Origin: Bacteroidota bacterium
GTDB taxonomy: Bacteria > Bacteroidota > Ignavibacteria > OLB7
NCBI GenBank assembly: GCA_048498995.1
Contig: JBEHWX010000013.1
Location: 19,437 to 83,436, forward strand
DNA length: 64,000 nucleotides
Direction: 5' to 3'
Shown piece by piece: positions 13,081 through 58,329 of this stretch. The stretch's first letter is position 1; every line of letters begins with the position of its first letter. The notes beneath the pieces were generated by a model that worked only from the letters and a program-made list of their open reading frames with translations, did no database searches and was not told where the DNA came from. The position numbers and the translations under genes were made by a program.

Positions 13081-14358
13081 TTACCGTGCCCGAGCCGTGC
13101 TGTCGACCTGCGTGAAGGTGAAGAGGCCGCTGGTGAAGATCGGCACCGGCGCCCGCTCGCGGATGGCGGCGTAATACGGGAGGCGGAGAAATCCGTCGGT
13201 GCCGCCGCGCGCGGCGAGCGCCATCCGCGCATCGGCCGTGGGCATGTTCCCGCTCCGGATCATCCGGTTGAACTCGATCGTGTTGGTGACATAGTAGGCG
13301 AACGTGGCGATGGCCAGCGTGGCGACCACCGGCCAGAGCCGGCGCGCGCGCCGCGGAAACTCCGCCAGCGCCGTGGCCACGAGGTTGATCGCGAAGAAGA
13401 GGACGAGCCGCTCCCCCGGCCGGACGATCCCGGCCATCGCCAGCGGCAGCGCCAGGATCACGATCGGCAGCGGCGCGGCAAGCAGCAGCGCGAAGCGGAG
13501 ACGCCGCGTGCGCCACCATCGCGCCGCCAGCAGCCCCGCGATCGCCACCACTCCCACGGCCCATGCGTAGTTGATCACCTTCAGCGGCAGCCCCGGCTCC
13601 GAGACTCCCTTGAAGCGCTGGAACGGCGCCAGGACGCCGGCGAAGAGCGACAGGCGCTGCTGAGCCTGCCACGCGGGATCGAACGCTCCGGCCGCGGCGG
13701 CCACGGCGCTATCCCCCGTCACCGAGGAGACGAACCAGGCAAGCAGCAGGAGCGCCGGGATGTTCACCAGGAAGACCCGCCAGAGGAGCTGCGATCGCCT
13801 GACCGCCAGCAGATAGAGCCCGACGGCGTAGAGGAGAATGGCGTAGGCGAAGAAGTGGGAGAGATACGCCAGCAGAAACAGGCTCGCCGAGCCGAAGAAG
13901 CTCTCCAGCCACCGACGGCCGATCAGCAGCTCGAATCCGATCAGCGCCACGCCGAGCCCGAAGATGAAGTTGACGTTCCCCAGCCAGAAGTTCAGGTTGA
14001 AGACGAAGATCAGCGAGATGAACGGGGCCAGCGCGCTCCAGCGTCCGGAAACGAACCGGATGTAGCGGGCCGAGCCGACATAGAGGAGCGTCATCGCCAT
14101 GGCCAGGACGATCTTCCCGGCCAGCTCCGGATCGAGGAAGGTGGAGAGAAGTCCGATCAGGATGGTCGAGATCGCGTTCGGCGGGATGAACGGCTGGAGC
14201 GCGAAGAAGTGCTCGAAGGAGTTCCCCGAGAAGACGTATTCCCGGAAGAGAAATCCCTGGTAGAGCCAGTCGGGATAATCCTGCAGCGGAAGGAAGCGGA
14301 AGAGAAAGACGTAGGCGATGATCGGCAGCGAGAGGACCGGGACCATCCACCGGCGCAT
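13081..14358 (-). CDS. polytopic integral membrane protein (possibly GT-C-like glycosyltransferase)
   Basis: At least 10 predicted TM helices (LPIIAYVFLFRFLPL, LAMAMTLLYVG, FISLIFVFNLNFWLGN...). Start placed at MRRWMVPV (14358). Function not recognisable. Confidence 0.5.
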   Translation of the reverse strand: MRRWMVPVLSLPIIAYVFLFRFLPLQDYPDWLYQGFLFREYVFSGNSFEHFFALQPFIPPNAISTILIGLLSTFLDPELAGKIVLAMAMTLLYVGSARYIRFVSGRWSALAPFISLIFVFNLNFWLGNVNFIFGLGVALIGFELLIGRRWLESFFGSASLFLLAYLSHFFAYAILLYAVGLYLLAVRRSQLLWRVFLVNIPALLLLAWFVSSVTGDSAVAAAAGAFDPAWQAQQRLSLFAGVLAPFQRFKGVSEPGLPLKVINYAWAVGVVAIAGLLAARWWRTRRLRFALLLAAPLPIVILALPLAMAGIVRPGERLVLFFAINLVATALAEFPRRARRLWPVVATLAIATFAYYVTNTIEFNRMIRSGNMPTADARMALAARGGTDGFLRLPYYAAIRERAPVPIFTSGLFTFTQVDSTARAR

Positions 14359-16050: not shown

Positions 16051-17049
16051 TCAGGTCGACTTCGACTCGATAGCGGACCAAACCCGGGCCATCAGCCGAT
16101 CGGGCTCCGAAATTATCACATTCACGCCGACCACGTAGAGCAGCGGCGCCAGATCGGTGTGCCACTGGAGCTTGACGGCATCCTTGGCGGTCGTGATGAT
16201 GGGGCCGGCCTTCACGCGCCCCCGCTCGTAGCGGATCTCCGACAGCTCGCGCGGCAGGTATCGCTGGTGATCGCGGAAGAAGAGCGTCCCCTTCGGCGTG
16301 ATCCCCATGCCGGCCAGCGCGTCGACCACCCGCTGCGGCTGCGCGATGCCGGTCACCAGCAGCGCCGGCACGGCCGGGTCGAGCGGACGTCCCCCCTTCC
16401 AGGCGACCGGCGGCGTGGAGCGGAAGCCGAGTCGGATGATGTCTGCGTCGGGGGCGGCATGGCGCCGGGCAAGCTCCTCGGCGCGATCGGAGGTCGGAAG
16501 TATCACCTGCGCTCGCTGGAGCGCATCGATGCGCTCGCGGAGGATGCCGGCCGGCATCGGCCAGGGGAGCTCCGCGGTCCGGTCGTCGAGGATCACGATA
16601 TCGAGATCGCGCGCCAGGCAGTGATGCTGGAAGCCGTCATCGAGCAGCGCCACGGCATCGGGGAACTCCGGCTCGAGCTTCCGGAGCAGCGCGGCGCGAT
16701 CCCCCCCGACCGCCACCGACGCGCCGCCGACGGCATCGGCGATCAGCGTCGGCTCGTCGCCGAACTGGAGGTATTCCGGGGGCGCATCCCCGGAGCGCCA
16801 GAGGAGATCCTCCTTGGAGTCGCGGCCGTAGCCACGCGAGAGGACGAGGACGGGACGCCGCTTCAGGATCTCGCGGGCCAGATGGATCACCAGCGGGGTT
16901 TTACCGGTGCCGCCGACCGATAGGTTGCCGACGGAGATGACGGGCAGCCGCGACTGCCAGCGCTCGGCGAGCTTCCGGCGTCGGTCGCGGTCGGCCATCA
17001 TGGCGTAGATGGCTCCGACGGGGCGAAGCAGTACGCGCTCGTTGATCAT
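16051..17049 (-). CDS. lpxK: tetraacyldisaccharide 4'-kinase
   Basis: VISVGNLSVGGTGKTPLVIHLA P-loop and LpxK-like length. Sits in the lipid A cluster. Confidence 0.85.
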   Translation of the reverse strand: MINERVLLRPVGAIYAMMADRDRRRKLAERWQSRLPVISVGNLSVGGTGKTPLVIHLAREILKRRPVLVLSRGYGRDSKEDLLWRSGDAPPEYLQFGDEPTLIADAVGGASVAVGGDRAALLRKLEPEFPDAVALLDDGFQHHCLARDLDIVILDDRTAELPWPMPAGILRERIDALQRAQVILPTSDRAEELARRHAAPDADIIRLGFRSTPPVAWKGGRPLDPAVPALLVTGIAQPQRVVDALAGMGITPKGTLFFRDHQRYLPRELSEIRYERGRVKAGPIITTAKDAVKLQWHTDLAPLLYVVGVNVIISEPDRLMARVWSAIESKST

Positions 17050-18029
17050 AGCTCCTCAGAAGTCGATGCGTGATTCAAGCGGTCGAGCTCGGCCTCGAAG
17101 CGCGCCAGCAGATCCGGGCCGACCCAGAAGCGTCCGGCGGCCGGATCACCGGCTCCGGTATCGGCGGCGCCGTCTGGCACGGCCTCTGGCACGTCCCCGG
17201 AACGGGCCCCGGACATGCCCTCAGGCACGGCGTCGGCTCCGGCGTCGGCGGCGCCCTCGGGCACGGCTTCGGCTCCGGCATCGGCGGCGCCGTCAGGCAC
17301 GGCTTCGGACAGGGCCTCGGACATTGCCTCGGCTCCGGCGTCGCCCTCAGCCACGTCCCCGGAACGGGCCTCGGACATGCCCTCAGGCACGGCTTCGGCT
17401 CCGGCGTCGGTGGCGCCCTGGGGCACAGCTTCAGACATAGCCTCGGGCGCTTCCGTCCTCAGCGCTCCCACATGTTCGGACGGATCGAATATGCAATAAC
17501 GGATATAAACTTTCGCGAAGGGATACGGGATCTCCATCGCGTCCCAGCTTCCGAGCCGCCGGCGCGAGCGGCACTCCCAGCCGGCAAGCATCACCGGCAC
17601 CCCGGCGCGCGCCGCGGCCACCAGCGCCCCCGCTTTCGCCCGCCGTGCCGGTCCACGAGGGCCGTCCGGCGTGATCAGGCAACTCATCCTCCCCAGCGCA
17701 TCCACCAGCTCCGAGAGCGCCTCGCCCCCCTTGCGCGAGCTCGATCCGCGCACCACGCGACCGTAGCCGAGCCCGTCCGAAAGATATTCCGCCAGCAGTC
17801 CCCCATCCCGGCTCGCGCTCACCAACGCGCAGCTCCGCGCGCCGCGGAACCGGTACCAGACCGGCAGCATCTTCCCGTGCCAGAAGGCGATCACCGCTCT
17901 GACCTCGCCACGCACCAGCGGCGCGCACTCCGGCGGAATCTCCTCCCGGATTCGCCACGTGGCCGACAGTCCCCGCAGCAGAACGCGGAGAAGCACCCCC
18001 TCCAGCGAACGGGATCCGCCGGAGCTCAT
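17046..18029 (-). CDS. DUF374 / lysophospholipid acyltransferase-like protein with repetitive acidic C-terminal region
   Basis: Conserved core (VIAFWHGKMLP...SASRDGGLLAEYL...CLITPDGPRGP) as in DUF374 proteins next to kdtA/lpxK. C-terminal about 110 aa is imperfect repeats of (E/D)AVP(E/D)GA(A/T)DAGA. Confidence 0.6.
   Translation of the reverse strand: MSSGGSRSLEGVLLRVLLRGLSATWRIREEIPPECAPLVRGEVRAVIAFWHGKMLPVWYRFRGARSCALVSASRDGGLLAEYLSDGLGYGRVVRGSSSRKGGEALSELVDALGRMSCLITPDGPRGPARRAKAGALVAAARAGVPVMLAGWECRSRRRLGSWDAMEIPYPFAKVYIRYCIFDPSEHVGALRTEAPEAMSEAVPQGATDAGAEAVPEGMSEARSGDVAEGDAGAEAMSEALSEAVPDGAADAGAEAVPEGAADAGADAVPEGMSGARSGDVPEAVPDGAADTGAGDPAAGRFWVGPDLLARFEAELDRLNHASTSEEL
17100..17460 (-). 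repeat. intragenic imperfect tandem repeat (36-bp units, plus longer about 120-160 bp periodicity)
   Basis: Direct repeats ggctccggcgtcggcggcgccctcgggcacggcttc / ggctccggcatcggcggcgccgtcaggcacggcttc, and cacgtccccggaacgggcc repeated at about 17190 and 17352. Encodes the low-complexity acidic Ala/Glu-rich tail of the DUF374 protein. Confidence 0.7.
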
Positions 18030-46006: not shown

Positions 46007-46456
46007 TCATCCCTTTGCTTGGAGTTCTTCGCGCACCATTGCCTGGACGCGCGCGCCATCGGCGCGTCCGCGCATCGCGGCCATCGCCTTGGGCATCACC
46101 ACCTTGAAATCGGTCGGGCCGGACGCGCCGGTCTCCGTGATGATCGCGCGCACCTGGTCGCGGATCTCGTCGTCGTTCAACTGCTGCGGCAGATAGGTCT
46201 CGATGATGCCGAGCTCATCGGCCTCGCGCGCGGCAAGATCCTCGCGCTGGGCCAGACGGTACTGCTCGATGGCATCCTTGCGGCGCTTGGCCTGGTTCTG
46301 CAGCGTGCGGAGCTCGTCGTCCGCGGTGAAGGCCTTGCCGCTCTTCTCAAGCTCCAGGAGCGCGGCGCGCAGCATCCGGAGCGTCTCCAGCCGGAGCTTC
46401 TCCCCGGCGCGCATTGCCTCTTTCAGGTCCTCGCTGATTCGTTCGGTGATCGTCAT
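46007..46456 (-). CDS. yqeY: GatB/YqeY domain protein
   Basis: MTITERISEDLKEAMRAGEKLRLETLRMLRAAL... is the YqeY family. Start at internal ATG 46456. Confidence 0.8.
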   Translation of the reverse strand: MTITERISEDLKEAMRAGEKLRLETLRMLRAALLELEKSGKAFTADDELRTLQNQAKRRKDAIEQYRLAQREDLAAREADELGIIETYLPQQLNDDEIRDQVRAIITETGASGPTDFKVVMPKAMAAMRGRADGARVQAMVREELQAKG

Positions 46457-46770
46457 GATGCTCTGAACGTAGATCGTGATTGACGCCGGCCACCCGTTCC
46501 CGCCCACGCGGGAGCCGATCGGCGCCGGCCGTTATGTGCGACGATGATCCGGGCGCCGATGTTGCCGGTCCGGATGCATCGAACATTGCCCCGCGCGGCG
46601 TGCGCGTCGTATGTTGGGTTCCGCCGCGGCTTCCAGGCCCGGCGATACCACCGGAGCATCGCATCCCGGTGACACGCCCGAGTCCGGAGGGCGATACTCT
46701 CTGCGAGGTCCAGCGCCGGCGCCTGCCCAATGGGTCGGCCGCGCGAAAACGCCAAATTTACGATCTGCCG

Positions 46771-47694
46771 ATGAAACGCGTTCTCTCTCTCCTGCCAAGC
46801 ACCACCGAAATCCTCTTTCTCATCGGCGCCGGAGACCAGCTCGTCGGCGTCACCCATGAGTGCGATTATCCGGCCGAGGCTCGTCAGAAGCCGCGCGTCA
46901 CCTCGGCGCGCATCAATCCGATGATGGCCAGCGACGAGATCGACGCGCTGGTGCGCCAGCAGCTGGAGGACTCCGGATCGCTCTACGCGCTGGACATGGA
47001 GCTGGTGCGCGATCTGAGCCCCGAGCTGGTGCTGACCCAGCAGCTCTGCACCGTCTGCGCCGTCGGCTATGCCACCGTTCACGCCGCGATGCGCACGCTC
47101 CCCGAGCCCCCGCTCGTGATGAACATCGAGCCCCGCTCGCTCGACGAGGTCTTCGCGTCGTTCGTCGAGATCGGCCGGCGGCTCGAGCTCGAGGAAGCGG
47201 CCCGGAACCGGGTGGCCGAACTGCGCGCGCGCCTTGCCGCCATTCCGCCGCTCGCCCCGGCGCCACGGGTGCTCCTGCTCGAGTGGCTGATTCCCCCCTT
47301 CTCCGCCGGACATTGGATGGCGGAGATCGTCGAGGCGGCCGGCGCCCTTCCGGTGCTTCACAACAAGGGGGAGCACTCGCGACAGCTGAGCTGGGAGGCG
47401 ATCGGCGCGGCCGAGTTCGACACGCTGGTGATCACCTGCTGCGGCTTCCCGGTGGAGCGGACGCTGCTCGATCTGGAGCGGAGCGAGGAATTACGGGAGT
47501 TGATCGCCGCGCGCCCCTGGCTACGCCTGATCGTCTTCGACGGCAATCACTTCTTCAGCCGTCCCGGCCCCCGGCTCGTCGAAAGCGCGGAGCTGCTCCA
47601 CGCGGCGCTTGCCGGCGCCGATCCCGAGACGGTGGGCTCGACAATTTCGAGACCATATCTCGAGGTGATCCCGGCCGAGGTCGCTCACCGCTGA
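46771..47694 (+). CDS. cobalamin/Fe-siderophore-type periplasmic-binding-protein-fold protein (BtuF-like), no signal peptide detected
   Basis: MKRVLSLLPSTTEILFLIGAGDQLVGVTHECDYP... is the class III (cluster A) substrate-binding fold N-terminus. Start ATG 46771. Confidence 0.65.
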   Translation: MKRVLSLLPSTTEILFLIGAGDQLVGVTHECDYPAEARQKPRVTSARINPMMASDEIDALVRQQLEDSGSLYALDMELVRDLSPELVLTQQLCTVCAVGYATVHAAMRTLPEPPLVMNIEPRSLDEVFASFVEIGRRLELEEAARNRVAELRARLAAIPPLAPAPRVLLLEWLIPPFSAGHWMAEIVEAAGALPVLHNKGEHSRQLSWEAIGAAEFDTLVITCCGFPVERTLLDLERSEELRELIAARPWLRLIVFDGNHFFSRPGPRLVESAELLHAALAGADPETVGSTISRPYLEVIPAEVAHR

Positions 47695-47840
47695 ATCGGA
47701 TCCGGGGCATGCTCCTTGTGCCATTCGATGCGCGGAGCGTCATGTCGCTCCCGAAGGCGCGCCACGTCGGCCCGCGCGGCATGGTCCGGCGTGGATCGTC
47801 GTCGTGGCGATCATCGATAACGACAGGTCGGAGGAGAACC

Positions 47841-48056
47841 ATGGACCCGAAGGAACGAGCCGAGGAGCGGCATGACCAGTCGCGGCCGGACACTCACGGA
47901 GCCGATGCGTCGGCCAACGAGCGACACGAGAAGAGGAACCCGGCACAGGTAACCCGGAACGAAGAGGCCAACCCCGGTGCCGGCGGCCGCGCCGACCGCG
48001 ATCCGGCCGAGGGAGCGCGCGACGAATACGGCACGCGCCCCGGCGAGGAGCAGTAA
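47841..48056 (+). CDS. 71-aa highly charged, disordered hypothetical protein
   Basis: GGAGGAG 3 nt upstream of ATG 47841. MDPKERAEERHDQSRPDTHGADASANERHEKRNPAQVTRNEEANPGAGGRADRDPAEGARDEYGTRPGEEQ. Composition could be a GC-frame artefact. Confidence 0.25.
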   Translation: MDPKERAEERHDQSRPDTHGADASANERHEKRNPAQVTRNEEANPGAGGRADRDPAEGARDEYGTRPGEEQ

Positions 48057-48099
48057 TCCCACGCGCGGAAACAGCCAAGTTACGTTACGAGGTCCGGCG

Positions 48100-48172
48100 G
48101 GAGAAGCCGTTCGCGCCGAATGGTGGAAACACAGTGTGACGCGCCGGAAGCTCCGCCGAGGCGGCATCCGGC
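48100..48172. repeat. 73-bp conserved repeat, copy 1 (module-boundary element)
   Basis: gggagaagccgttcgcgccgaatggtggaaacacagtgtgacgcgc...gctccgccgaggcggcatccgg, near-identical to 51229-51301. In copy 2 it lies in frame with a transposase-like ORF. Confidence 0.8.
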
Positions 48173-48236
48173 AAGCGCACGGGCCACGTCTCGATTGCGG
48201 CGAGGCCGGTCACCATACCGGAGCTGACAAAGCAGA

Positions 48237-48283
48237 CCGGGATCGGAGAGCTCCTCTCCGATCCCGGTATCGTTTTCATTCGG
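48237..48283. terminator. strong hairpin plus T-tract (likely bidirectional terminator) at 3' end of module 2
   Basis: ccgggatcggagag-ctc-ctctccgatcccgg perfect 14-bp stem (48237-48267), then TATCGTTTTCATTCGG. Lies 15-60 nt beyond the stop of gene 48298..49629. Confidence 0.55.
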
Positions 48284-48297
48284 TCGGATGTGCACTT

Positions 48298-49629
48298 CTA
48301 CCGGACGACCACCTTCACCAGGCCGATCACGCTTCCATCGAGTGAGACTCTAACGATGTAGGTTCCCGCGGACAGATCCCCAAGCTCCGTGAGCGGAACT
48401 GACGTTTCTCCAGGCTCGACCATGATCTCCGGCCCGCGCCACACTTCCCTTCCAAGCAGATCGCTCAACGTTACGTCGAGGCGCCCGCCATGCCCGAGAT
48501 CCACGCGAAGGGAAGCAGCGCCGTCCGGCGAGAGCGGATTGGGCACCAAGCGGAAATTCGCGACGTGCTTCCGAGGCATTGCCACCGATGAAACCGATCC
48601 CGATTGATGGATGTAGATTCTGCCGTCGGAGCCCGTAGCCAGCACACGCGTCGGGCTCAGGTAATGAAGCCCAGATAGGGCAATGATCCTCGCGAAATCG
48701 GCACTCGAGTCGCGGACCCACACGCGCCCTCCGTCACTAGTCCGGAACACAGCGGATGAGTAGTCACCGATGATCCCATTTAGTGTATCGAGAAACGCCA
48801 TCGACAAGATCTGCCAGAACTGGCGATCCAGATCGCTGTCGATCCTCACCTCCCAGGTCCTGGCCCCGTCTTCCGTATAGGCAAGTTGCAGCCTTGAAAG
48901 CTCTCCAGTTGACTCAACAAGAAATCGAGACGCCATCCATCCGTGCAGCGAATCGAGGAAGTACAGTTTTTGGGCTTTGTCGCGCGAGGGCATTCTCCGC
49001 CATGTGTGTCCGGTATCGTCGGTCCGAAAGAGCCGTGTCGAATCTCCGTACGTGACGCAGAGCGCATAAAAATTTGCCGGCGTGGGAGTCGAGATCTCGA
49101 CAACCCCGATTGGAAAGTCCACCGGCGGCAGCTCCGATTCGCGCCATGTCCGTCCACTATCAGTCGTTACCATAATGGTGTGATAGCCAAAGGTCGTAAC
49201 ACCGGTCCGTGCGTCGGCCATTGTCACGAGCTTGATCTTGTCCGTGGTGAAGGTGTCCCGGCTCCACGTATTCCCGCCGTCACGTGTAATCACCACTTGC
49301 CCGCTATCACCACCAACCATGCATACGCTGGGCGTCGGATACGAGATATATCGAAGCGGGATCGGCAACGCGTGCGGCCATGTGGCTGCTCCGGAATCCA
49401 GAAAGACGATCCGCCATGTACGTCCGCCGTCCGTGGATTTACGCACGTCGAACTCCGAAAATCCCCGTGTACCAAGGGCCATGCAGTTCACGGAATCGGC
49501 ACAGTCAAGGCATCGAAACTGATACAACGGAATCGAGTCAATGACCTCCCATCGCCCCGTCTGGGCATAGATTCGTCCGCAGAACAGAAGGAACCCAGCA
49601 ACAATCAGAAGGCGAGCAATACGCTCCAT
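48298..49629 (-). CDS. secreted BNR/Asp-box beta-propeller protein with T9SS C-terminal sorting domain (subtype I, paralog A)
   Basis: Signal peptide MERIARLLIVAGFLLFCGRIYAQ. Repeated S/T-x-D-x-G-x-T-W motifs (STDGGRTW, TRDGGNTW, TDSGRTW, TDDTGHTW, TEDGARTW, TSDGGRVW). C-terminal about 85 aa LVPNPLSPDGAASLRVDL...SAGTYIVRVSLDGSVIGLVKVVVR matches the Por_Secre_tail pattern. Confidence 0.8.
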   Translation of the reverse strand: MERIARLLIVAGFLLFCGRIYAQTGRWEVIDSIPLYQFRCLDCADSVNCMALGTRGFSEFDVRKSTDGGRTWRIVFLDSGAATWPHALPIPLRYISYPTPSVCMVGGDSGQVVITRDGGNTWSRDTFTTDKIKLVTMADARTGVTTFGYHTIMVTTDSGRTWRESELPPVDFPIGVVEISTPTPANFYALCVTYGDSTRLFRTDDTGHTWRRMPSRDKAQKLYFLDSLHGWMASRFLVESTGELSRLQLAYTEDGARTWEVRIDSDLDRQFWQILSMAFLDTLNGIIGDYSSAVFRTSDGGRVWVRDSSADFARIIALSGLHYLSPTRVLATGSDGRIYIHQSGSVSSVAMPRKHVANFRLVPNPLSPDGAASLRVDLGHGGRLDVTLSDLLGREVWRGPEIMVEPGETSVPLTELGDLSAGTYIVRVSLDGSVIGLVKVVVR

Positions 49630-49722
49630 TGGATCGACTCCGGTATGTGACTATGCGAATCACCGTGGCGCTTGAGAATCATCGCTGACATGCGGAGGCA
49701 TGAATGACCTCGCGCGGGCACG

Positions 49723-50682
49723 TTAACGAGACACAAATGTGCCCGTTGTGAAATTGCATCCACCGAACGAAACTCTGTAGAAGTAGACGCCAGGGACCAA
49801 CCGTCCGCGGTCAATGACAAACCTATACACTCCATCGCCATCCAACACGGGCCGAAGTTCATCAACCTTTCTACCCGACACATCATTCAACTCCAGCAGG
49901 CCCTTGGCCGCAACCTCGGGTTTGCAGAGTATCGTCATTTCCAGGCCCAGATTGAAGATCTGCACATCATTGATGCGGTCCGCCTTGATAGCTCCCGTCA
50001 CGGGCTTACCTGATGTATCACTAAAGACAATGTTATCACACATCGCGAAACAGGATGATGTCGTAAAATCTCCAATGATAGGATTGATGGGAAATCCCGG
50101 GTTCCCGGATTCGGCATCCACCTCACAAGAAGTTGCGGTTGAGCGTTGATATTCGGTAACGATGCTAACATTACCATTCAGATCCTTGCAAACGCGATAG
50201 CGTGCAACGCAACACCCCGAGCCCTGGCAGGGGCGGATCGTCGGGATGGATCCGACATTCGTCTGCTTCCAGCAACCAGCAACACTGACACGGTAGTAAT
50301 TGATACATGAACCTGCGACAGGATTGGAGAACGGAAGAATCCCGGCAGTGAGGAGATATTGTGCCACCTCACGGAGCCAATCCCCCGGGAAGCACCCCGC
50401 GCATGTCCCAGACACATACTCGATCTTATATATCTGAATGTCGACATAGTTATCCGGCGGGCAGGCATTTCGAAAGACGTACCAGGCTCTAACCTGGCAA
50501 CTGCTCCCGCATGTAGTCAATGTGAAGGCCCAATTGCTGACTCCGACGGTGTTCCAGGAATGCTCTGGACAATCAGGGTAACAGAGCAGGTCTTCTTCCG
50601 AAGGCTGTGCATGGGCCGAGGTGGCAGTGGCAAAGAAGGTCGCGAAGAGCGCCATCATTGCCAGAAGTGTGACTCTCGACAT
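49723..50682 (-). CDS. secreted cysteine-rich protein of unrecognised family with T9SS-type C-terminal domain (paralog B)
   Basis: Signal peptide MSRVTLLAMMALFATFFATATSAHAQ. About 18 Cys in the mature region (LLCYPDCP, TTCGSSCQ, GTCAGC, GCCVARYRVCK, SSCFAMC). C-terminal VYRFVIDRGRLVPGVYFYRVSFGG... resembles the T9SS CTD. Paralogous to 55708..56664. Confidence 0.7.
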   Translation of the reverse strand: MSRVTLLAMMALFATFFATATSAHAQPSEEDLLCYPDCPEHSWNTVGVSNWAFTLTTCGSSCQVRAWYVFRNACPPDNYVDIQIYKIEYVSGTCAGCFPGDWLREVAQYLLTAGILPFSNPVAGSCINYYRVSVAGCWKQTNVGSIPTIRPCQGSGCCVARYRVCKDLNGNVSIVTEYQRSTATSCEVDAESGNPGFPINPIIGDFTTSSCFAMCDNIVFSDTSGKPVTGAIKADRINDVQIFNLGLEMTILCKPEVAAKGLLELNDVSGRKVDELRPVLDGDGVYRFVIDRGRLVPGVYFYRVSFGGCNFTTGTFVSR

Positions 50683-50925
50683 GATTCGTACCTCGTCGAT
50701 AGTAAGTAGTGGATCGACCGCGAACCCTCACTCCTCCCCCATGCGCAATTCCCGTTCTCTCCCGGACTCCGGCCGCTGGTGCGTGATGGCCGACCGTGTC
50801 GAAGTGCGTCGAATGCTGGAAGCCCTGCTTCCGGAATATGCCGGTGAATCGGTGTGTCTTACCTGACGTCGCCAATGGGCGGAACGTGGGTACAAAGGTA
50901 CAGCTCGATACCATTGCTGTCAAGT
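50683..50925 (-). promoter_or_regulatory. conserved about 200-nt leader plus candidate promoter upstream of Cys-rich gene B (copy 1)
   Basis: Near-identical to 56665-56905. On minus strand: TTGACA (rc 50918-50923), N17, TACCTTTG (rc 50893-50900). The conserved leader has hairpins GGAAGC-AGG-GCTTCC and CCGG-CATATT-CCGG. Confidence 0.5.
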
Positions 50926-51228
50926 GGGCCTCAAACGAAAAGAGCCGGGCGCATTGCCTCACAAATAATGTAACCAGAGGTCGTTGGCGGCCAGGGTCGT
51001 TGCCTCATAATAGATGTAACCGATCTAGCACTGAGGCAACGCTATGTCAGAAGCATCCAGACGTGAGTACCTACGGGCCATCTACAGGCGCTATCACACG
51101 GCATCCGTCGAGCAGAAAGGACGCATCCTCGATGAGTTCACCGCTGCCTGCGGCTACAACCGCAAGTACGCCATCCGGCTGCTCAATGCGCCACTGGATC
51201 CTCCTGCCAGGCCACCGAAGCGTCCGGT

Positions 51229-51301
51229 GGGAGAAGCCGTTCGCGCCGAATGGTGGAAACACAGTGTGACGCGCGCGACGCTCCGCCGAGGCGGCATCCG
51301 G
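51229..51301. repeat. 73-bp conserved repeat, copy 2 (module-boundary element)
   Basis: Near-identical to 48100-48172 (differences only around gcgc-c/g-g-a/c-a/g-gctcc). Confidence 0.8.
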
Positions 51302-51379
51302 TGGGATCACCGGCCTGGCGGCCGCGATAGTGACGCCCGATCGCCATCGATCAATATGCCGGTACGAACAAAGCAGGCC

Positions 51380-51420
51380 GGGATCGGAGAGCGGCTCTCC
51401 GATCCCAGTTTCGTTTTCAT
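51380..51420. terminator. strong hairpin plus T-tract (likely bidirectional terminator) at 3' end of module 1
   Basis: gggatcggagagc-g-gctctccgatccc (51380-51406) then AGTTTCGTTTTCAT. Lies 20-60 nt beyond the stop of gene 51439..52773. Homologous to the 48237 hairpin. Confidence 0.55.
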
Positions 51421-51438
51421 TCGGTCGGATGTGCCCTT

Positions 51439-52773
51439 CTAGCGCGCAAGCACCTTCACCAAGCCGATCACGCTTCCATCGAGTGAGACTCTGACAATGT
51501 AGGTTCCCGCGGACAGTCTCCCACGCGGCGCCAGCGGGATCGTCCTCTCGCCAGGCCCAATCACCTCTCCCTGCTCGGTCGCCACCTCCCTTCCGAGCAT
51601 GTCCGTGACCACCACTGTGAGGCGTCCGCCACGCTCCGTCGAGAGCCTGATCATCGCCATGCCGTCGCGGTCTACGGGATTGGGTGACAAACTTAGGCCG
51701 GTACGGCTCGTACCGATCTCCGCAACACCGGACTCCGGTTCGGACTCCGAGACGTAGATCTTGCCGTCGGCCGTCGCGGAGATCAGGCGTGTCGGCGTCA
51801 GATACTCGACACCCACGAAAATTTCAAGATTAGAGGCGAACACGTTCCAATCCCGATACCAGGTGCGCCCCCCGTCGCTGGTCAACCATACAGAGAGCGA
51901 ATAATCACCAATAATACCGTTGAGTGAATCACGGAATGCCATCGACATAATCCTCCAGAACTTGCCATTCAAGTCACTGTCGATCAATGTCTCCCAGGTC
52001 TTCCCTCCGTCACGCGTGTAGGCAAGGTTTAGCCGAGAAAGCTCTCCGTTTGGATCGATAATGAATCGGGACGCCATCCATCCCCGAAGCGAATCGAGAA
52101 AATAAATATTGAAGGCTTGGTCGCGCGATGGCAGTCGTTGCCAGGTTCTGCCCGTGTCGTCGGTTCGAAACAAAAGTGTTGAATCTCCACGAGTTGCACA
52201 TAGGCCCAGGAATGTCCCTGAAGCCGGTGTGGACACATCAGCCACTCCATGGGGATCGGATAAGTCAGGCCACAGGGATTGCCTCCATGTCGCACCTCCA
52301 TCGGTCGTCACCAATACCGAATCTGCGCCGATCACGATCATCCCGACGTTCGCATCCGACATTGACACAGCATTCACTTTGAGATTGCCGAACGTGTCGC
52401 GACTCCATGTACTACCTCCGTCATGTGTAACGAGCAACTGTCCTTTGTCGCCTCCGACCATGCATACATCGGCAGTCGGATGTGAGATATGACGCAGCGG
52501 TGCGGGCAGCGGGTGAGGCCATCCGCTCCCACCAGAGTCAATGTAGACGGTACGCCAAGTCCGGCCGCCATCAGTGGATCTGCGCACGTCAAACTCACCG
52601 AACCCGAATGTTCCAACCGCCATGCAATGCAGAGAATCAGCGCAATCGAGACACATGTACGTGAAACGGTAGACTGAGTCCTGCAACCGCCAATCCGAAA
52701 TTTGAGCAACGCTTCGGTTCCCAATGGTGGCAAGAGCCAGAATCGCGATGGCAAGAATCACGCGCTTCTTCAT
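51439..52773 (-). CDS. secreted BNR/Asp-box beta-propeller protein with T9SS CTD (subtype II, paralog C)
   Basis: Start at MKKRVILAIAILALATIGNRSVAQ (ATG 52773). BNR motifs (STDGGRTW, THDGGSTW, TDGGATW, TDDTGRTW, TRDGGKTW, TSDGGRTW). CTD ...SAGTYIVRVSLDGSVIGLVKVLAR. Confidence 0.8.
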   Translation of the reverse strand: MKKRVILAIAILALATIGNRSVAQISDWRLQDSVYRFTYMCLDCADSLHCMAVGTFGFGEFDVRRSTDGGRTWRTVYIDSGGSGWPHPLPAPLRHISHPTADVCMVGGDKGQLLVTHDGGSTWSRDTFGNLKVNAVSMSDANVGMIVIGADSVLVTTDGGATWRQSLWPDLSDPHGVADVSTPASGTFLGLCATRGDSTLLFRTDDTGRTWQRLPSRDQAFNIYFLDSLRGWMASRFIIDPNGELSRLNLAYTRDGGKTWETLIDSDLNGKFWRIMSMAFRDSLNGIIGDYSLSVWLTSDGGRTWYRDWNVFASNLEIFVGVEYLTPTRLISATADGKIYVSESEPESGVAEIGTSRTGLSLSPNPVDRDGMAMIRLSTERGGRLTVVVTDMLGREVATEQGEVIGPGERTIPLAPRGRLSAGTYIVRVSLDGSVIGLVKVLAR

Positions 52774-52811
52774 GGCGATGTCGGTATTAGGCTGTTGGAA
52801 CAAGATCCGTT

Positions 52812-54143
52812 TTATGGGACAATCGCCTTCACCATGCCGATCACTCTTCCGTCCACCGAGATCCGAATGACGTAGGATCCGGGGGGCATGTCCCGAAACC
52901 CCGTAAGTGGAACTAGGGTTTCTCCAGGCCCGGCAATGACCTCCGCCCCGCGCCACACATCCCTTCCAAGAAGATCGACCATTGTAAGGTCGAGACGACC
53001 GCCGTGTTCGAGCTTCATCCGCAGCGAGGGGGTGCCATCCGACGAGACCGGATTGGGCGCTAGGCTGACATCGGCAACGTCATTGCGAACCATGATCACT
53101 GATGAAACCGGACCCGATTCATCGATAAAAACCTTTCCGTCGGAAGACACAGCCAGCAGACGCGTCGGGTTGAGATACTGAAGTCCCGAAGGAGCAAAGA
53201 TCTGAGCACTCAGAGCGCTTGAATCACGAAGCCACGTATACCCTCCATCACTCGTCCCGAAGACAGCGGAAGAGTTATCTCCAATCACGCCATGCAAGGT
53301 ATCGAGAAACGCGATCGACATGATCCGCCAGAACTGACGATTCAGATCACTGTCGATCCTCACTTCCCACGTTCTGGCGCCATCATTCGTGTAGGCAAGT
53401 TGCAGTCTCGAAAGCTCTCCATTCGGATCGATACTATTTCTGGAGGCCATCCAACCGTGCAGCGAATCGAGGAAATAAATATCCCGGGCCTTATCTCGCG
53501 ATGGCATTTTTCGCCACGTATGCCCGGCGTCGTCAGATCGAAAGAGCGGCGTCGAATCGCCATACGTGGCGCAGAGTGCGTAGAAGGTCGACGGCGTCGG
53601 AGTCACCATCTCGCTAACACCAATTGGAAAGTCCACCGGGGGCAGCTCTGATTCTCGCCAGGAACGACCGGTATCGGTCGTGACCAATATCGTATGATAT
53701 CCAAAGGACGTAACGCCGGTCCGCGCGTCCGCCATTGCCACAAGCTTAATCTTATCTGTCGTGAGCGTATCACGGCTCCAGGTGCCTCCTCCGTCTCGTG
53801 TTATCAGCACCTGGCCGCTATCTCCACCAACAATGCACACATTCGGATCAGGATACGAAACGTGGCGGAGAAGGATAGGCAGCGAATGGGGCCACGTGGC
53901 TGCTCCTGAATCCAGAAACACAGTTCGCCAGGTGCGTCCTCCATCGGCGGACTTCCGGATAAGCGATGCCGCGAACCCCTTTGTTCCGACGACCATGCAG
54001 TTCATGGAATCCGCGCAGTCAAGCGACAGATATTGGACATTCGGTATCGAGTCGACGACCTCCCATCGCCCCGTCTGGGCGTGAAGCTGCACACCGAGTA
54101 CGATCCCGAGCACGATCAGAAAGTGACGGGCCATGCAATGCAT
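52812..54143 (-). CDS. secreted BNR/Asp-box beta-propeller protein with T9SS CTD (subtype I, paralog D)
   Basis: Signal MHCMARHFLIVLGIVLGVQLHAQ (start 54143 or 54134). Roughly 80% identical by eye to paralog A over the N-terminal half. CTD ...SYVIRISVDGRVIGMVKAIVP. Confidence 0.8.
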   Translation of the reverse strand: MHCMARHFLIVLGIVLGVQLHAQTGRWEVVDSIPNVQYLSLDCADSMNCMVVGTKGFAASLIRKSADGGRTWRTVFLDSGAATWPHSLPILLRHVSYPDPNVCIVGGDSGQVLITRDGGGTWSRDTLTTDKIKLVAMADARTGVTSFGYHTILVTTDTGRSWRESELPPVDFPIGVSEMVTPTPSTFYALCATYGDSTPLFRSDDAGHTWRKMPSRDKARDIYFLDSLHGWMASRNSIDPNGELSRLQLAYTNDGARTWEVRIDSDLNRQFWRIMSIAFLDTLHGVIGDNSSAVFGTSDGGYTWLRDSSALSAQIFAPSGLQYLNPTRLLAVSSDGKVFIDESGPVSSVIMVRNDVADVSLAPNPVSSDGTPSLRMKLEHGGRLDLTMVDLLGRDVWRGAEVIAGPGETLVPLTGFRDMPPGSYVIRISVDGRVIGMVKAIVP

Positions 54144-54268
54144 GCGAGATTCTCCAGCAAGTGAACCAAATGCTGCCTGGTAAGGGCCGAGGAGTCTCAC
54201 CCTTCCGCGGGATTCCATCCCGGCATGGCGGACTATCGGTCAGCCAGCACCTGAGGTGCAGACTCTCC

Positions 54269-55606
54269 TTATCGAACGAAGGCCTTCACCACGCCGATCA
54301 TATCTCCATCAAGCGCGATTCTGACGATGTAGGTTCCCGCGGACAGTCTCCCACGCGGCGCCAGCGGGAGCGTCCTCTCGCCAGGCCCAATCACCTCTTC
54401 CTGCTCGGTCGCCACCTCCCTTCCGAGCAGGTCCGTAACGACCACGTCAAGGCGCCCACCCCGCTCCGTCGAGAGCCTGATCATCGCCATGCCGTCGCGG
54501 TCGACGGGATTGGGTGACAAGCTTAGGCCGGTACGGCTCGTACCGATCTCCGTAACACCGGACTCCGGCTGAGATTCGAAGGCGTAGATCTTGCCGTCGG
54601 CCGTCGCGGAGATCAGGCGCGTCGGGGTCAGGTACTCGACACCCGAGAATGTCGTAAGCTTCAGAGCATACACACTCCAGTCCCGATACCAGGTACGTCC
54701 ACCGTCACTGGTCAACCATACGGCAAACGAGTAGTCACCGATGATGCCATTGAGCGTATCCTTGAACGCCATCGAATGGATCTTCCAGAACTTGCCGTTC
54801 AAATCGCTGTCGATCAACTGTTCCCACTGCTCCCCACCATCACGTGTATAGGCGAGATCCAGCCGCGAAAGCTCCCCATTCGGATCGACACGAATTCGAG
54901 ATGCCATCCACCCATGGAGCGAATCGATGAAGTAGATATTCTGCGCTCTATAGCGGGAAGGCATTTGCCGCCAGGTTCGTCCCGTATCATCCGTACGAAA
55001 CAGATAGCTAGAATCGCTCATTACAACACAAAGCACAAGAAAGGTTCCGGGAGCAGGTGCTGTGATATCGACAACTCCATACGCGCGAGGCATCGATGGC
55101 ATCTCCGATTCCCCCCAGGTTCTTCCCCCGTCAGTAGTCACAAATATCGAATCGGCACCAATCGCAAACATGCCCACATTTGCATTAGACATTACAACTG
55201 TTTTCACATTGAGATCGCCGAATATCTGACGGCTCCATGTTGCCCCCCCGTCTCGTGTTACAAGCACTTGCCCTTTGTCCCCGCCGACCGCACATATATC
55301 TGCAGAAGGATATGAGATATGTCGCAATGGAGCAGGTAGTGGGTGCGGCCAGCCAATGCCCCCAGAATCCAGATAAACCGTGCGCCAGGTTCGGCCTCCA
55401 TCGGTGGACTTGCGTATATCGAACTCGCCGAACCCGAACGTACTGATGGCCATGCAGTGCAGCGAATCCGCGCAGTCGAGGCTCATGTAAGACATCTGAT
55501 AAACGGAGTCCTGCAGTTCCCAGTCACTGATCTGTGCAAGCAGGCGGCTTCCCGCGAGAAACAGCATCAATGACAACACCGAAATCAAAGTTTTTCTAAA
55601 CATCAT
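54269..55606 (-). CDS. secreted BNR/Asp-box beta-propeller protein with T9SS CTD (subtype II, paralog E)
   Basis: Signal MMFRKTLISVLSLMLFLAGSRLLAQ. Roughly 75% identical by eye to paralog C. The 3' about 120 bp are virtually identical to C at DNA level. Confidence 0.8.
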   Translation of the reverse strand: MMFRKTLISVLSLMLFLAGSRLLAQISDWELQDSVYQMSYMSLDCADSLHCMAISTFGFGEFDIRKSTDGGRTWRTVYLDSGGIGWPHPLPAPLRHISYPSADICAVGGDKGQVLVTRDGGATWSRQIFGDLNVKTVVMSNANVGMFAIGADSIFVTTDGGRTWGESEMPSMPRAYGVVDITAPAPGTFLVLCVVMSDSSYLFRTDDTGRTWRQMPSRYRAQNIYFIDSLHGWMASRIRVDPNGELSRLDLAYTRDGGEQWEQLIDSDLNGKFWKIHSMAFKDTLNGIIGDYSFAVWLTSDGGRTWYRDWSVYALKLTTFSGVEYLTPTRLISATADGKIYAFESQPESGVTEIGTSRTGLSLSPNPVDRDGMAMIRLSTERGGRLDVVVTDLLGREVATEQEEVIGPGERTLPLAPRGRLSAGTYIVRIALDGDMIGVVKAFVR

Positions 55607-55707
55607 TCAACCTCAGAGTTTCCCCTGTGAGATATCAACAGACAAACATAAACGCCACAAGGTTATTAGGTATCCGTTGCTGCCGCAACGGATACCTAAT
55701 AATACAC

Positions 55708-56664
55708 TCACCGACCGAAGAACTCTCCGGTCGTGAAATTTTGACCGTTGAATGAGATTCGGTAATAGTAGATGCCACTCCCGAATCTGATCCGGTCGAC
55801 CAAGAACCTGCATGCATTATCGCCCACAATTACGGGGCGAAGTTCGGCGACTTTCTTACCCTGAGCATCGAAAATTTCTGCAACCCCTTCCAACAGGGAT
55901 TGGGGGCGACACAAGATCTGCATTTCAGCTCCCTGATGAAATACCTGAACATCATCAGTGATATTATATTGACCGCCCCAATACTTCTTGCCGAATGAAT
56001 CATTAATTGTGATCGCATCGCACTGCGGAGTGCAGGATGATGTCGTTTGGTCTCCAATCACGGGGTTATACGGAAAATTTAGATCGAGCGACTCCGGATC
56101 ATTATCGCATGGGGGCTGAGTTGGCGATTGATATTCAGTCGTAATCGTTATTCGATCGTCGGTACCCTTGCACACCTTATATCGTGCAACGCAACATCCC
56201 GCGGACTGGCAAGCTCGTATTGACGGTACAGAGCCGACTTTGACCTCTTTCCAACAGCTTGCGATACTAACCCTAAAGTAGGTAACACAGTTATCAGGGT
56301 CAGGGTTTGGAAACAGAGAGATGTTATCGACCAGCAAATGTTCGGCTGCTCCTTGGATCCAATCCGAAATCGAACAGCTCGTACATGTTCCAGACACGTA
56401 TTCGATCTTATAAATCTGAACATCCTGATAGTTACTGGGCGCACACGCCGTCCGATACACGTACCAGGCCCGAAGTTGACAGGAGCTACCACATGTGGTC
56501 AGTGTAAACATGTGATTGGATACGCCTACCGTACTCCATTGATCGGCTGGGCAGTCCGGGTAACAGAGCAAGTCTCCGTACGAAGGTTGGGCCATGGCGG
56601 TTACCGCGAGCCCGAGAAACGCGGCGATGAGTGAGAGCATGCCTCTCAAAATGATTCTCGACAT
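55708..56664 (-). CDS. secreted cysteine-rich protein of unrecognised family with T9SS-type CTD (paralog F)
   Basis: Signal MSRIILRGMLSLIAAFLGLAVTAMAQ. Conserved Cys framework shared with paralog B (LLCYPDCP...FTLTTCGSSCQ.RAWYV.R.AC.P.NY.D.QIYKIEYVSGTC..C...CCVARY.VCK). CTD ...GIYYYRISFNGQNFTTGEFFGR. Confidence 0.7.
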   Translation of the reverse strand: MSRIILRGMLSLIAAFLGLAVTAMAQPSYGDLLCYPDCPADQWSTVGVSNHMFTLTTCGSSCQLRAWYVYRTACAPSNYQDVQIYKIEYVSGTCTSCSISDWIQGAAEHLLVDNISLFPNPDPDNCVTYFRVSIASCWKEVKVGSVPSIRACQSAGCCVARYKVCKGTDDRITITTEYQSPTQPPCDNDPESLDLNFPYNPVIGDQTTSSCTPQCDAITINDSFGKKYWGGQYNITDDVQVFHQGAEMQILCRPQSLLEGVAEIFDAQGKKVAELRPVIVGDNACRFLVDRIRFGSGIYYYRISFNGQNFTTGEFFGR

Positions 56665-56905
56665 GATTCGTACCTCGTCGATAGTATGTAGTGGATCGAC
56701 CGCGAATCCTCACTCCCCTTCGTGGGCAAATCCTCCCTCCCGGACTCCGGCCGCTGATGCGTGATGGTCGGTCGTATCGATGTCCGTCGAGTGCTGGAAG
56801 CCCTGCTTCCGGAATATGCCGGTGAATCGGTGTGTCGTACCTGACGTCGCCATCTGGCTGAACGCGGGTACAAAGGTACAACTTGACACCATCGCGACCA
56901 AGCGG
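56665..56905 (-). promoter_or_regulatory. conserved about 200-nt leader plus candidate promoter upstream of Cys-rich gene F (copy 2)
   Basis: Near-identical to 50683-50925. On minus strand: TTGGTC (rc 56896-56901), N17, TACCTTTG (rc 56871-56878). Confidence 0.5.
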
Positions 56906-56973
56906 CGCCAAACGCAACGAGCCGGTGAGGCACTTCCCTCACCGGCTCGTACAATCGCTCTTCTGATTCTCCC

Positions 56974-58179
56974 TCACGCGACTTCGGCCTCGCGGCCCTC
57001 AAGACCCGGAGGAGTATCGGCACCTTTCGAGAGCGCCAGCAGACCGCCGGCCAGCGAGAAGAACGCGCCGGCAAAGCCATAGAGCACGATCTCTCCATGC
57101 TCGATGAAGAAGGCGCCGATCAGCGGACCGAGGATCTGCGCGATGCTCGCCAGCGACTGGCTTACGCCGAGCGCCGCTCCCTGCTCGTGCCGCCCCACCG
57201 ATCGGGTGATCAGCGTGGTCAGACATGGCCGCACCACCGCGCCGCCGAAGCTGCCGATGCCGGTGAGGATCAGCAGGAACGCGAGCGAGTTCACGTAGCC
57301 GAGAAGCGAATATCCGATCGCCATCGTGATGAACCCGATAATCGCGAGCCGCATCTCGCCGAGACGCTTCACCAGACGCCCGATCAGCCCTCCCTGAATC
57401 GCCGCGCCGATCACGCCGGAAAATGCGTAGATGTAGCCGGTATGCTCCGCGTCGTATCCCATCTGCCGCTCCAGGTAGAGCGGCAGCGCGGTGGTCATCG
57501 TGGCGAAGGAGAGCGTGAAGGCGAGGAATTCGAGCAGGTGACGCCGCACCATCGGACGCTCGAAATACTGCGTCATCCGCTTGATCCTTCCGATGCCGTC
57601 GTTGAGCGGCGCGCTCCGGGGCACTTTCGGCAGCAGCGTGATCGTGCCGATGATCGACAGCAGCGACAGCCCGGCCGCGGCGTAGGCCGGCCATTGATAG
57701 CCGTACTTGGAGAGGAATCCCGCGATCGGCGGTCCTATCACGAACCCGGAGCCGAACGCGATGCCGATCAGCGCGAACGCCTTGGTCCGCTCCTCCGGCT
57801 TCGTCACGTCGGAGATGTAGGCCTGCGCGATCGTGAGGTTGCCGGCGGTGAAGCCGTCGATGATGCGCGCCAGAAAAATCAGCCAGAGCGCGTTGGCCCC
57901 GCCGAGTACCAGAAATCCGACGAACGACCCGATCTGGCTCACCAGCAGCGTCGGCTTCCTCCCGACGCGGTCGGAGATACGTCCGAGAATCGGTCCGGCA
58001 ATGAACTGACAGATGGCGAACGAGGAGGTGATCAGCCCGACCGTCATCGGCGAGGCGCCGTAATGCTCCGCGTAAAACGGAAGGAACGGCAGGATGAGGG
58101 TGAACCCGAGAACGTCGACCGCGACGACCAGAAATATCGGAATCAGGGGTGAGGCGAAGCGCCGTGACTGCGTGCTCAT
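56974..58179 (-). CDS. MFS transporter (DHA1/TetA-like)
   Basis: 12 TM segments. MFS motif A-like GRISDRVGRKP. Start at MSTQSRRFASPLIPIFLVVAV (ATG 58179). Confidence 0.85.
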   Translation of the reverse strand: MSTQSRRFASPLIPIFLVVAVDVLGFTLILPFLPFYAEHYGASPMTVGLITSSFAICQFIAGPILGRISDRVGRKPTLLVSQIGSFVGFLVLGGANALWLIFLARIIDGFTAGNLTIAQAYISDVTKPEERTKAFALIGIAFGSGFVIGPPIAGFLSKYGYQWPAYAAAGLSLLSIIGTITLLPKVPRSAPLNDGIGRIKRMTQYFERPMVRRHLLEFLAFTLSFATMTTALPLYLERQMGYDAEHTGYIYAFSGVIGAAIQGGLIGRLVKRLGEMRLAIIGFITMAIGYSLLGYVNSLAFLLILTGIGSFGGAVVRPCLTTLITRSVGRHEQGAALGVSQSLASIAQILGPLIGAFFIEHGEIVLYGFAGAFFSLAGGLLALSKGADTPPGLEGREAEVA

Positions 58180-58329
58180 GGGTGCGTCGAAAATGAGAAC
58201 TGCGCCCCGGGGATCGGGGCGCGACTGAATCGGAGCGGGCGCGGTCATTCCCGGGCAAATGACGCGCCGCGTCGCCGCATGTATGCGTCGGACGGCGTCC
58301 CGGCCGGACGCCCCCGAGTATCGGCCGGC

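Follow-up and report, generated by a model that had tools for sequence, protein, structure and literature searches.

How can neighbouring genes that have diverged over most of their length still end in nearly the same DNA? The question is raised by a 64,000-nucleotide stretch of a Bacteroidota bacterium (positions 19,437 to 83,436 of contig JBEHWX010000013.1, assembly GCA_048498995.1; this whole stretch is called the window below), in which four genes, A, C, D and E, encode paralogous secreted proteins with a propeller and a C-terminal sorting domain of the type IX secretion system (T9SS). The initial annotation had proposed that recombination homogenised the 3' ends of these diverged genes, and the proposal holds up well: divergence between C and E drops at silent sites, A and D show no comparable drop, and comparison with a sister strain adds further events. 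Ectopic homologous recombination, that is, gene conversion, very probably homogenised the 3' ends. The four genes are listed here.

48298-49629, minus strand: gene A, 443 amino acids, the propeller paralog nearest D; its last 66 nt and 3' flank are common with C
51439-52773, minus strand: gene C, 444 amino acids from the ATG at 52773; the open reading frame (ORF) is open back to a GTG at 52956
52812-54143, minus strand: gene D, 443 amino acids from the ATG at 54143, with the ORF staying open as far back as 54218; the nearest paralog is A
54269-55606, minus strand: gene E, 445 amino acids, nearest to C among the paralogs and sharing with it the young tract described below

Identity between C and E is not uniform along the genes. 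It is 73.5% over the whole gene, close to the 75% that had been estimated for the upstream coding regions, and 66.7% outside a single tract near the 3' end. The shared tail had been placed in the last 120 or so base pairs; the real tract is 317 nt long, shifted inward, and stops short of the stop codon. Within 51439-51570, which had been called virtually identical, the description fits 51499-51567, where the two genes are identical save for a T at 51540. The interval as a whole is 84.8% identical, and 18 of its 20 mismatches lie at the very end of the gene, in 58 nt (51439-51496) where C is 69% identical to E. The tract and its internal structure are as follows.

51497-51813, minus strand: young C/E tract, copy in C, 317 nt, 92.1% identical to E
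54327-54643, minus strand: young C/E tract, copy in E, in gapless register with the C copy at an offset of 2830
51497-51599: patch of the tract with 98.1% C/E identity
51600-51631: island in the tract with 69% C/E identity (32 nt)
51632-51738: patch of the tract with 97.2% C/E identity
51739-51752: island in the tract with 50% C/E identity
51753-51813: patch of the tract with 95.1% C/E identity

The island at 51600-51631 holds 10 nucleotide differences between C and E but only 2 amino-acid differences, and so looks like old sequence that was never converted and not like a site of selection.

Divergence was measured by the Nei-Gojobori method, and fourfold-degenerate sites were counted at codons keeping the same amino acid and compared by Fisher's test. 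The proportion of differing synonymous sites (pS) between C and E is 0.76 in the propeller, where it is saturated, and 0.18 in the tract, where the synonymous divergence (dS) is 0.21; along the sliding profile, pS goes from 0.6-0.9 down to 0.08-0.31. Fourfold-degenerate sites are identical at 51 of 61 positions in the tract versus 41 of 120 in the propeller (p = 1.4e-10). Because the drop is found at synonymous and fourfold-degenerate sites, protein-level constraint does not explain it, and constraint as the cause of the tract was rejected on this silent-site evidence. Breakpoint tests also find the profile to be uneven. In a maximum chi-square test the best segment was 51490-51813, with 8.0% mismatch versus 33.3% in the remainder, a contrast reached by 0 of 200 permutations, and a GENECONV-like permutation of the order of polymorphic sites across all four copies gave the C-E fragment a global p of at most 0.0005. 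The region is not intrinsically slow, since over the same codons the A-D pair has a pS of 0.41 and a proportion of differing nonsynonymous sites (pN) of 0.22, and the cross pairs, A-C and D-E among them, have a pS of 0.54-0.67. A conversion tract between A and D was considered as well and is not significant (p = 0.08 at fourfold-degenerate sites).

The very end of C has a different partner. The nearest relative of C is E until about 51497, and A from there through the stop codon and into the flank. It had been noticed correctly that A shares its terminal 60 or so base pairs with C: 48310-48375 in A and 51451-51516 in C differ at 3 of 66 nt, and the similarity runs on for about 215 nt into the 3' flank (48092-48297 versus 51222-51438). 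Fourfold-degenerate sites in this A/C tail are identical at 13 of 15 positions, versus 47 of 126 elsewhere (p = 4e-4). The shared pieces are these.

51222-51516, minus strand: A-like 3' module of C, with the last 66-78 nt of coding sequence (strands 6-7 of the sorting domain), stop codon, terminator and a 73-nt element
48092-48375, minus strand: matching 3' module of A, with terminator hairpin and 73-nt element
51378-51408, minus strand: terminator hairpin after C
48236-48268, minus strand: terminator hairpin after A
51229-51301, minus strand: 73-nt element beyond the C terminator
48099-48171, minus strand: 73-nt element beyond the A terminator

The two copies of the 73-nt element are identical save at three free (N) positions of the pattern, and the window holds no other copy.

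What these pieces encode was read from family profiles and a predicted structure. PF14870, the Ycf48/BNR propeller family, matches A, C, D and E at 33.7-49.9 bits (C at 43.6) against a cut-off of 27. In the AlphaFold model of C, whose mean predicted local distance difference test score (pLDDT) is 84.5, a helix at residues 2-18 is followed by the propeller (28-343), a low-confidence linker (346-357) and a seven-strand sandwich (360-443). On this model, C starts with a predicted signal peptide, continues as a seven-bladed Ycf48/BNR-like propeller and, after a disordered linker, ends in a T9SS type A sorting domain. The predicted signal peptide, an N-terminal hydrophobic stretch ending in A-Q, is present in all four propeller proteins. 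Foldseek matched the propeller of C to the Ycf48 structures 5ojr, 2xbg and 5oj3 at E of about 1e-14, with target-normalised TM-scores of 0.69-0.76. Identity as a photosystem II assembly factor was ruled out for the propellers, which score 42-55 bits with NF010237 against a cut-off of 326.

The C-terminal sandwich of the propeller proteins is a T9SS type A sorting domain (TIGR04183 / PF18962). With whole proteins and a cut-off of 23 bits for TIGR04183, C passes at 23.1, and E (20.4), A (20.0) and D (14.2) fall below; with isolated domains of 92 amino acids, C reaches 27.5 bits and all 12 aligned family members match, the best at E = 6e-11. A profile of the sorting domain matched the solved structures 8glk_D (E = 1.4e-4), mirolase 8qb1 (1.6e-4) and RgpB 5hfs (0.016), and matched PorU and HBP35 weakly. 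The tract encodes residues 321-426 or so of C. These take in the final strands of the propeller's last blade, the linker and strands 1-5 of the sorting domain; the A-like part encodes strands 6-7. The sorting domain of C is itself chimeric, with strands 1-5 resembling E and strands 6-7 resembling A, which makes the whole gene a three-part mosaic.

An exchange of T9SS C-terminal domains, as the initial annotation had it, names the right domain and leaves out the end of the last blade and the linker, which the tract covers too. Type A sorting domains are cleaved off during T9SS export, so that most of the tract would be missing from the mature protein. The sorting domain may tolerate homogenisation because one secretion machinery serves all the copies and the domain is discarded after export. 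The further suggestion, that such exchange serves to shuffle secretion tags or to make surface proteins more diverse, is not supported: the effect is homogenisation, mostly in the discarded part, and no evidence of selection was found.

The propeller genes stand in a minus-strand run of six genes (F, E, D, C, B, A), flanked by the genes for an MFS transporter (56974-58248) and a periplasmic-binding protein (46453-47376). The run reads as two paralogous operon cassettes for T9SS cargo, a long one, F-E-D-C, and a short one, B-A. A, C, D and E are paralogs of one another, as B and F are of each other. Both cassettes follow one plan: a conserved leader comes first, then the gene for the cysteine-rich secreted protein (F or B), then three propeller genes (E-D-C) or one (A), and last a terminator and the 73-nt element. 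The parts at the 5' ends of the cassettes are the following.

49723-50682, minus strand: gene B, 319 amino acids, cysteine-rich secreted protein, first gene of cassette B-A
55708-56664, minus strand: gene F, 318 amino acids, cysteine-rich, paralog of B, first gene of cassette F-E-D-C
56665-56925, minus strand: 'up' leader repeat ahead of F, beginning right after the terminator of the MFS gene
50683-50948, minus strand: 'up' leader repeat ahead of B, opening with a remnant of the descending arm of the MFS terminator

The two leaders are 87-95% identical, versus about 58% for the genes behind them (coding parts of F and B, roughly 55-60% nucleotide identity). The B and F proteins match TIGR04183 weakly and under the cut-off, at 15.3 and 18.3 bits, and matched no Pfam family.

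A sister strain allows the array to be compared at the scale of closely related genomes. It is represented by five independent Logan assemblies of the same locus, from one set of sequencing runs. Its flanking and shared genes are 98.7-99.6% identical to those of the window, with an orthologue dS of 0.014-0.045, and in all five assemblies B and A come straight after the MFS gene. Two differences stand out.

50859-56836: segment of 5,978 bp missing in the sister strain, comprising part of a leader, F, E, D, C and the spacer
48173-48309, minus strand: strain-variable patch at the 3' end and flank of A, 151 nt long in the sister strain

The junction of the 5,978-bp difference lies inside a 41-nt block that is identical at 50818-50858 and 56796-56836, in the two leaders. 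The sister's A patch takes in the final 12 nt of the gene and runs through the terminator and roughly 100 nt past it. It is 96.6% identical to the window's C copy (51303-51450) and 74.5% to the window's own A, with a 14-nt gap, and the sequence on either side of it is 96.5-100% A-like between the strains. The comparison thus adds two recombination events at cassette ends, on the time scale of strain divergence. It is informative on the A side, where one allele of the patch matches the paralog C; orthologues of C or E were found in none of the collections searched (GTDB representatives, a large protein collection and JGI metagenomes). The exchange between C and E had been described as recent, which suits the patches of 95-98% identity, about as young as the strain split, and does not suit the tract as a whole, with its dS of 0.21 versus 0.014-0.045 for orthologues. 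The sister-strain leader (L011, 3014-3280) was also seen to carry about ten private differences within 100 nt near its start, beside genes that are 99% identical.

Gene conversion would explain these features as the outcome of recombination among non-allelic direct repeats 2.8-6 kb apart, in which short pieces of DNA are moved and copy number is unchanged. C would record at least two such events. Its propeller would be that of an old paralog of E, with saturated synonymous sites; the next 317 nt would have been homogenised with E much later, its patchiness fitting either a series of short events or a single heteroduplex whose mismatches were repaired unevenly; and the last 66 or so nt, with the 3' flank, would have become A type. 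Non-reciprocal exchange would leave conversion tracts, and reciprocal exchange between the leaders would gain or lose cassettes, with crossing-over in the 41-nt block accounting for gain or loss of the 5,978-bp F-E-D-C cassette. Exact C/E runs of at least 25 nt occur inside the tract alone (28-43 nt, the longest 43 nt; the longest A/C run is 46 nt), from which we infer that conversion there may be self-sustaining: if recombination needs runs of exact identity, the tract would remain convertible and the propellers would have diverged beyond its reach. The mosaic, the step at silent sites, the differences between the strains and the domain identities are direct results; the pathway of recombination, the direction of every transfer and the identity threshold are interpretation.

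Several observations weigh against this reading. The pS of A and D also falls mildly in the sorting domain, from 0.63 to 0.41, so some general reduction at silent sites, from composition or older events, contributes there. The A/C tail, taken as coding sequence alone, is not significant by site permutation (p = 0.39), and is supported despite this by its fourfold-degenerate sites and the shared flank. With no orthologues of C and E found in the collections searched, clustering by genome and clustering by orthologue can be compared on the A side alone. Behind the window is a metagenome-type assembly. The C-like patch of the sister strain, in which no C is detectable, also calls for an extra step: a conversion that predates loss of the cassette, or replacement of the patch in the window's own A.

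Other routes to the same mosaic have to be weighed beside gene conversion. A sorting-domain block, with or without its flank, could have been grafted onto an older propeller gene by unequal crossing-over or domain 'capture', leaving C chimeric from birth. Such a module duplication is favoured by the clean boundary at 51222 of the A-type 3' module of C (tail, terminator and 73-nt element) and by the MFS terminator remnant at the start of the B leader, a mark of segmental duplication. It is also favoured by a metagenome contig, L020, that has the same sorting domain on an unrelated N-terminal domain, where conversion between homologous genes alone would be insufficient, and by the proposal of the KLIKK authors that catalytic domains were fused to shared terminal extensions (PMC4404884). 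However, the C/E tract comes without flank on the E side, begins inside the last blade and lies in genes that are homologous throughout; its old islands suit heteroduplex repair or repeated short conversions over a single graft, and no change of copy number or gene order is needed. We consider chimeric birth unlikely. Import of the tract, the A patch or the whole F-E-D-C cassette from a diverged strain, by homologous recombination between genomes, would fit the low GC content of the cassette region (48.4-56.8 kb, 47-59% versus 63-69%), the presence or absence of F-E-D-C between strains about 99% identical, and the private differences in the sister leader. A partner for every patch is nevertheless found inside the window, 2.8-3.1 kb off, so that donors within the genome suffice, and no foreign donor was found in any collection searched, which makes import very unlikely.

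That the C and E ends are kept alike by constraint on the nucleotides themselves, through an antisense gene, an RNA structure or a regulatory site, seems less likely still. Antisense ORFs do lie over the 3' ends (for example 53966-54517, plus strand), and unusual conservation is seen in non-coding sequence as well, in the leader and the 73-nt element. But antisense ORFs are frequent by chance at this GC content, A and D have the same architecture and no comparable conservation, and islands of 50-69% identity sit within the C/E tract. An Rfam scan of 47500-57200 returned no family at E <= 1, and the folds of the 73-nt element (both strands) and of both leaders were no better than those of shuffled sequence (z from -1.9 to +0.35); by these two results a structured RNA at the leader or the element is unsupported. 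Constraint also leaves unexplained why the sister's A patch matches C instead of A. The least credible reading is an assembly artefact, in which an assembler switch from one paralog to another, inside the similar 3' ends, produced an apparent mosaic. The contig is of metagenome type, and the C protein is missing from the protein collection in which A, B, D, E and F are present. Yet the longest exact matches are 43 nt for C/E and 46 nt for A/C, shorter than usual final assembly k-mers; the copies differ at scattered positions throughout, and a mis-join cannot create similarity; and the A-side structures are repeated in five independent assemblies. An artefact was rejected on the match lengths and these assemblies. 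Gene conversion accordingly is the explanation we retain as very probable.

Related arrangements are known in other T9SS bacteria. According to PMC4404884 and PMC9890683, the KLIKK proteases of Tannerella forsythia (karilysin, mirolysin, forsilysin, mirolase, miropsin-1 and miropsin-2) are, like the genes here, an array of T9SS cargo with near-identical sorting domains on differing functional domains. There, too, each gene has a small ORF upstream (the potempins) and the array is absent from a close relative. The sorting-domain profile from the present locus matches mirolase itself (8qb1, as above). Unlike that system, the cargo here is a Ycf48-like propeller, the lineage is environmental and related to Kapabacteria, the partner encoded upstream is a 318-residue cysteine-rich protein with a sorting domain of its own and not a lipoprotein inhibitor, and two of the four sorting domains are homogenised, each in part. 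A limited term search of the KLIKK paper turned up no silent-site or breakpoint analysis. RgpA, Kgp and HagA of Porphyromonas gingivalis are likewise T9SS cargo with a conserved sorting domain and shared C-terminal modules, and domain rearrangement, allelic exchange and gene conversion are reported as sources of their variation (PMC5266723). Unlike the present array, those genes are dispersed, and the units exchanged are large adhesin modules that are kept on the mature protein. The outcome there is antigenic and functional diversity; here it is homogenisation of a mostly cleaved tag. A full-text literature search joining type IX secretion, C-terminal domain and gene conversion returned PMC5266723 alone, so a silent-site study of conversion limited to the sorting domain may be unpublished.

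The phenomenon is of a known kind, and shared sorting domains on different cargo have already been described in Tannerella and Porphyromonas. Concerted evolution by RecA-dependent gene conversion is familiar from tuf genes, rRNA operons and surface-protein families. As is general for tandem paralogs evolving in concert, the tracts here are of low divergence at synonymous sites, and unequal crossing-over alters copy number. Unlike in those families, conversion here is limited to the secretion-tag end and the non-coding ends of the cassettes, and the propellers escaped it.

The same pattern was found, as an independent replicate, in L020, an AT-rich metagenome contig. Three complete genes and one partial gene on it are 88-93% identical over their last 264 or so nt, from an S-P-N-P motif to the stop codon, with the upstream parts at background identity. 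In one L020 gene the sorting domain, 92% identical at the nucleotide level, follows an unrelated N-terminal domain that is not a propeller, and two genes of L015, from the same metagenome, carry the sorting domain as well. At least six genes share the domain, at 88-93%:

L020, 15-205: gene with shared sorting domain
L020, 4618-4883: gene with shared sorting domain
L020, 8068-8350: gene with shared sorting domain
L020, 12829-13107: gene with shared sorting domain
L015, 6990-7240: gene with shared sorting domain
L015, 11051-11303: gene with shared sorting domain

The shared segment in L020 has 47% GC, versus about 30% for the remainder of the gene; the flanks downstream are repeated too. In the window, GC at third codon positions of C and E is 77% in the last 378 nt, the converted tract included, versus 57% in the propellers. 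This contrast hints at GC-biased conversion. Two small features of L020 were recorded beside these: a motif like GAATAGCYACTACTTTCAAG occurs twice, about 100 nt apart, downstream of one gene (13090-13300), and the shared sorting-domain DNA holds a perfect 24-nt palindrome, AACAAGGGGTTGCAACCCCTTGTT. We entertain, with considerable doubt, the idea that in T9SS bacteria the sorting-domain DNA and its downstream flank form a recombination-competent module, homogenised by recurrent and possibly GC-biased conversion and graftable onto unrelated genes. If true, it would be a general route for recruiting proteins to the T9SS and for gaining and losing cargo cassettes.

Other features of the locus were noted. 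Within the B and F leaders, TACCTTTG is a putative promoter, which we take to fit the Bacteroidota -7 motif; a scan for sigma-70 promoters found sites no more numerous than in shuffled sequence. A cysteine-rich protein of the B/F type is encoded directly 5' of a Ycf48-like propeller gene here and in four distant loci, so that the pair looks like a conserved two-gene module. The distant genes, found by tblastn at 23-29% identity, are listed here.

L001, 202-1164: distant B/F-type gene
L016, 125-829: distant B/F-type gene
L020, 10749-11624: distant B/F-type gene
L002, 9374-9661: distant B/F-type gene

Both cassettes lie in a low-GC island (48400-56800, 47-59% GC versus 63-69% in the flanking housekeeping genes), which may reflect old horizontal acquisition or other codon usage in secreted proteins. 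Elsewhere in the window, a tandem repeat at 17150-17446, with periods of 36 nt and 12 nt and 91% matches, encodes an acidic low-complexity stretch (AEAVPEGAADAG and similar) inside the minus-strand ORF 17046-18029. The ATP synthase alpha subunit of the window is 86% identical to that of Candidatus Kapabacteria, close to Ignavibacteria, and the host reads as a lineage related to Kapabacteria. T9SS is common in the Kapabacteria/Ignavibacteria group.

Among GTDB species representatives and JGI metagenomes, no relatives were found above 35% identity. The only matches found in the large protein collection were D and E of the window itself and A of the sister strain. P0001 is the E protein from a later start codon and P0003 is identical to the D protein. 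The C protein is not in the collection, although A, B, D, E and F of the same NCBI contig are; the source record may have a different gene call or a pseudogene mark. A search with the 103-residue C-terminal sequence returned nothing, E included, which was attributed to word-based retrieval on short queries and was not counted as a negative.

The finding leaves the understanding of the T9SS and of gene conversion unchanged. The wider question it raises is whether sorting-domain DNA is homogenised genome-wide in this group, with a GC-biased signature, for which existing genomes are enough for a test. Whole-gene trees of a family like this one blend several histories, and the 3' end is better treated by itself. 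In strain comparisons, short repeats of this kind can remove or insert a cassette of four genes even where the strains are 99% identical. The array offers a clean, quantified example of tandem secreted families in which the functional domains diverge while the tag and the operon ends stay linked by recombination.

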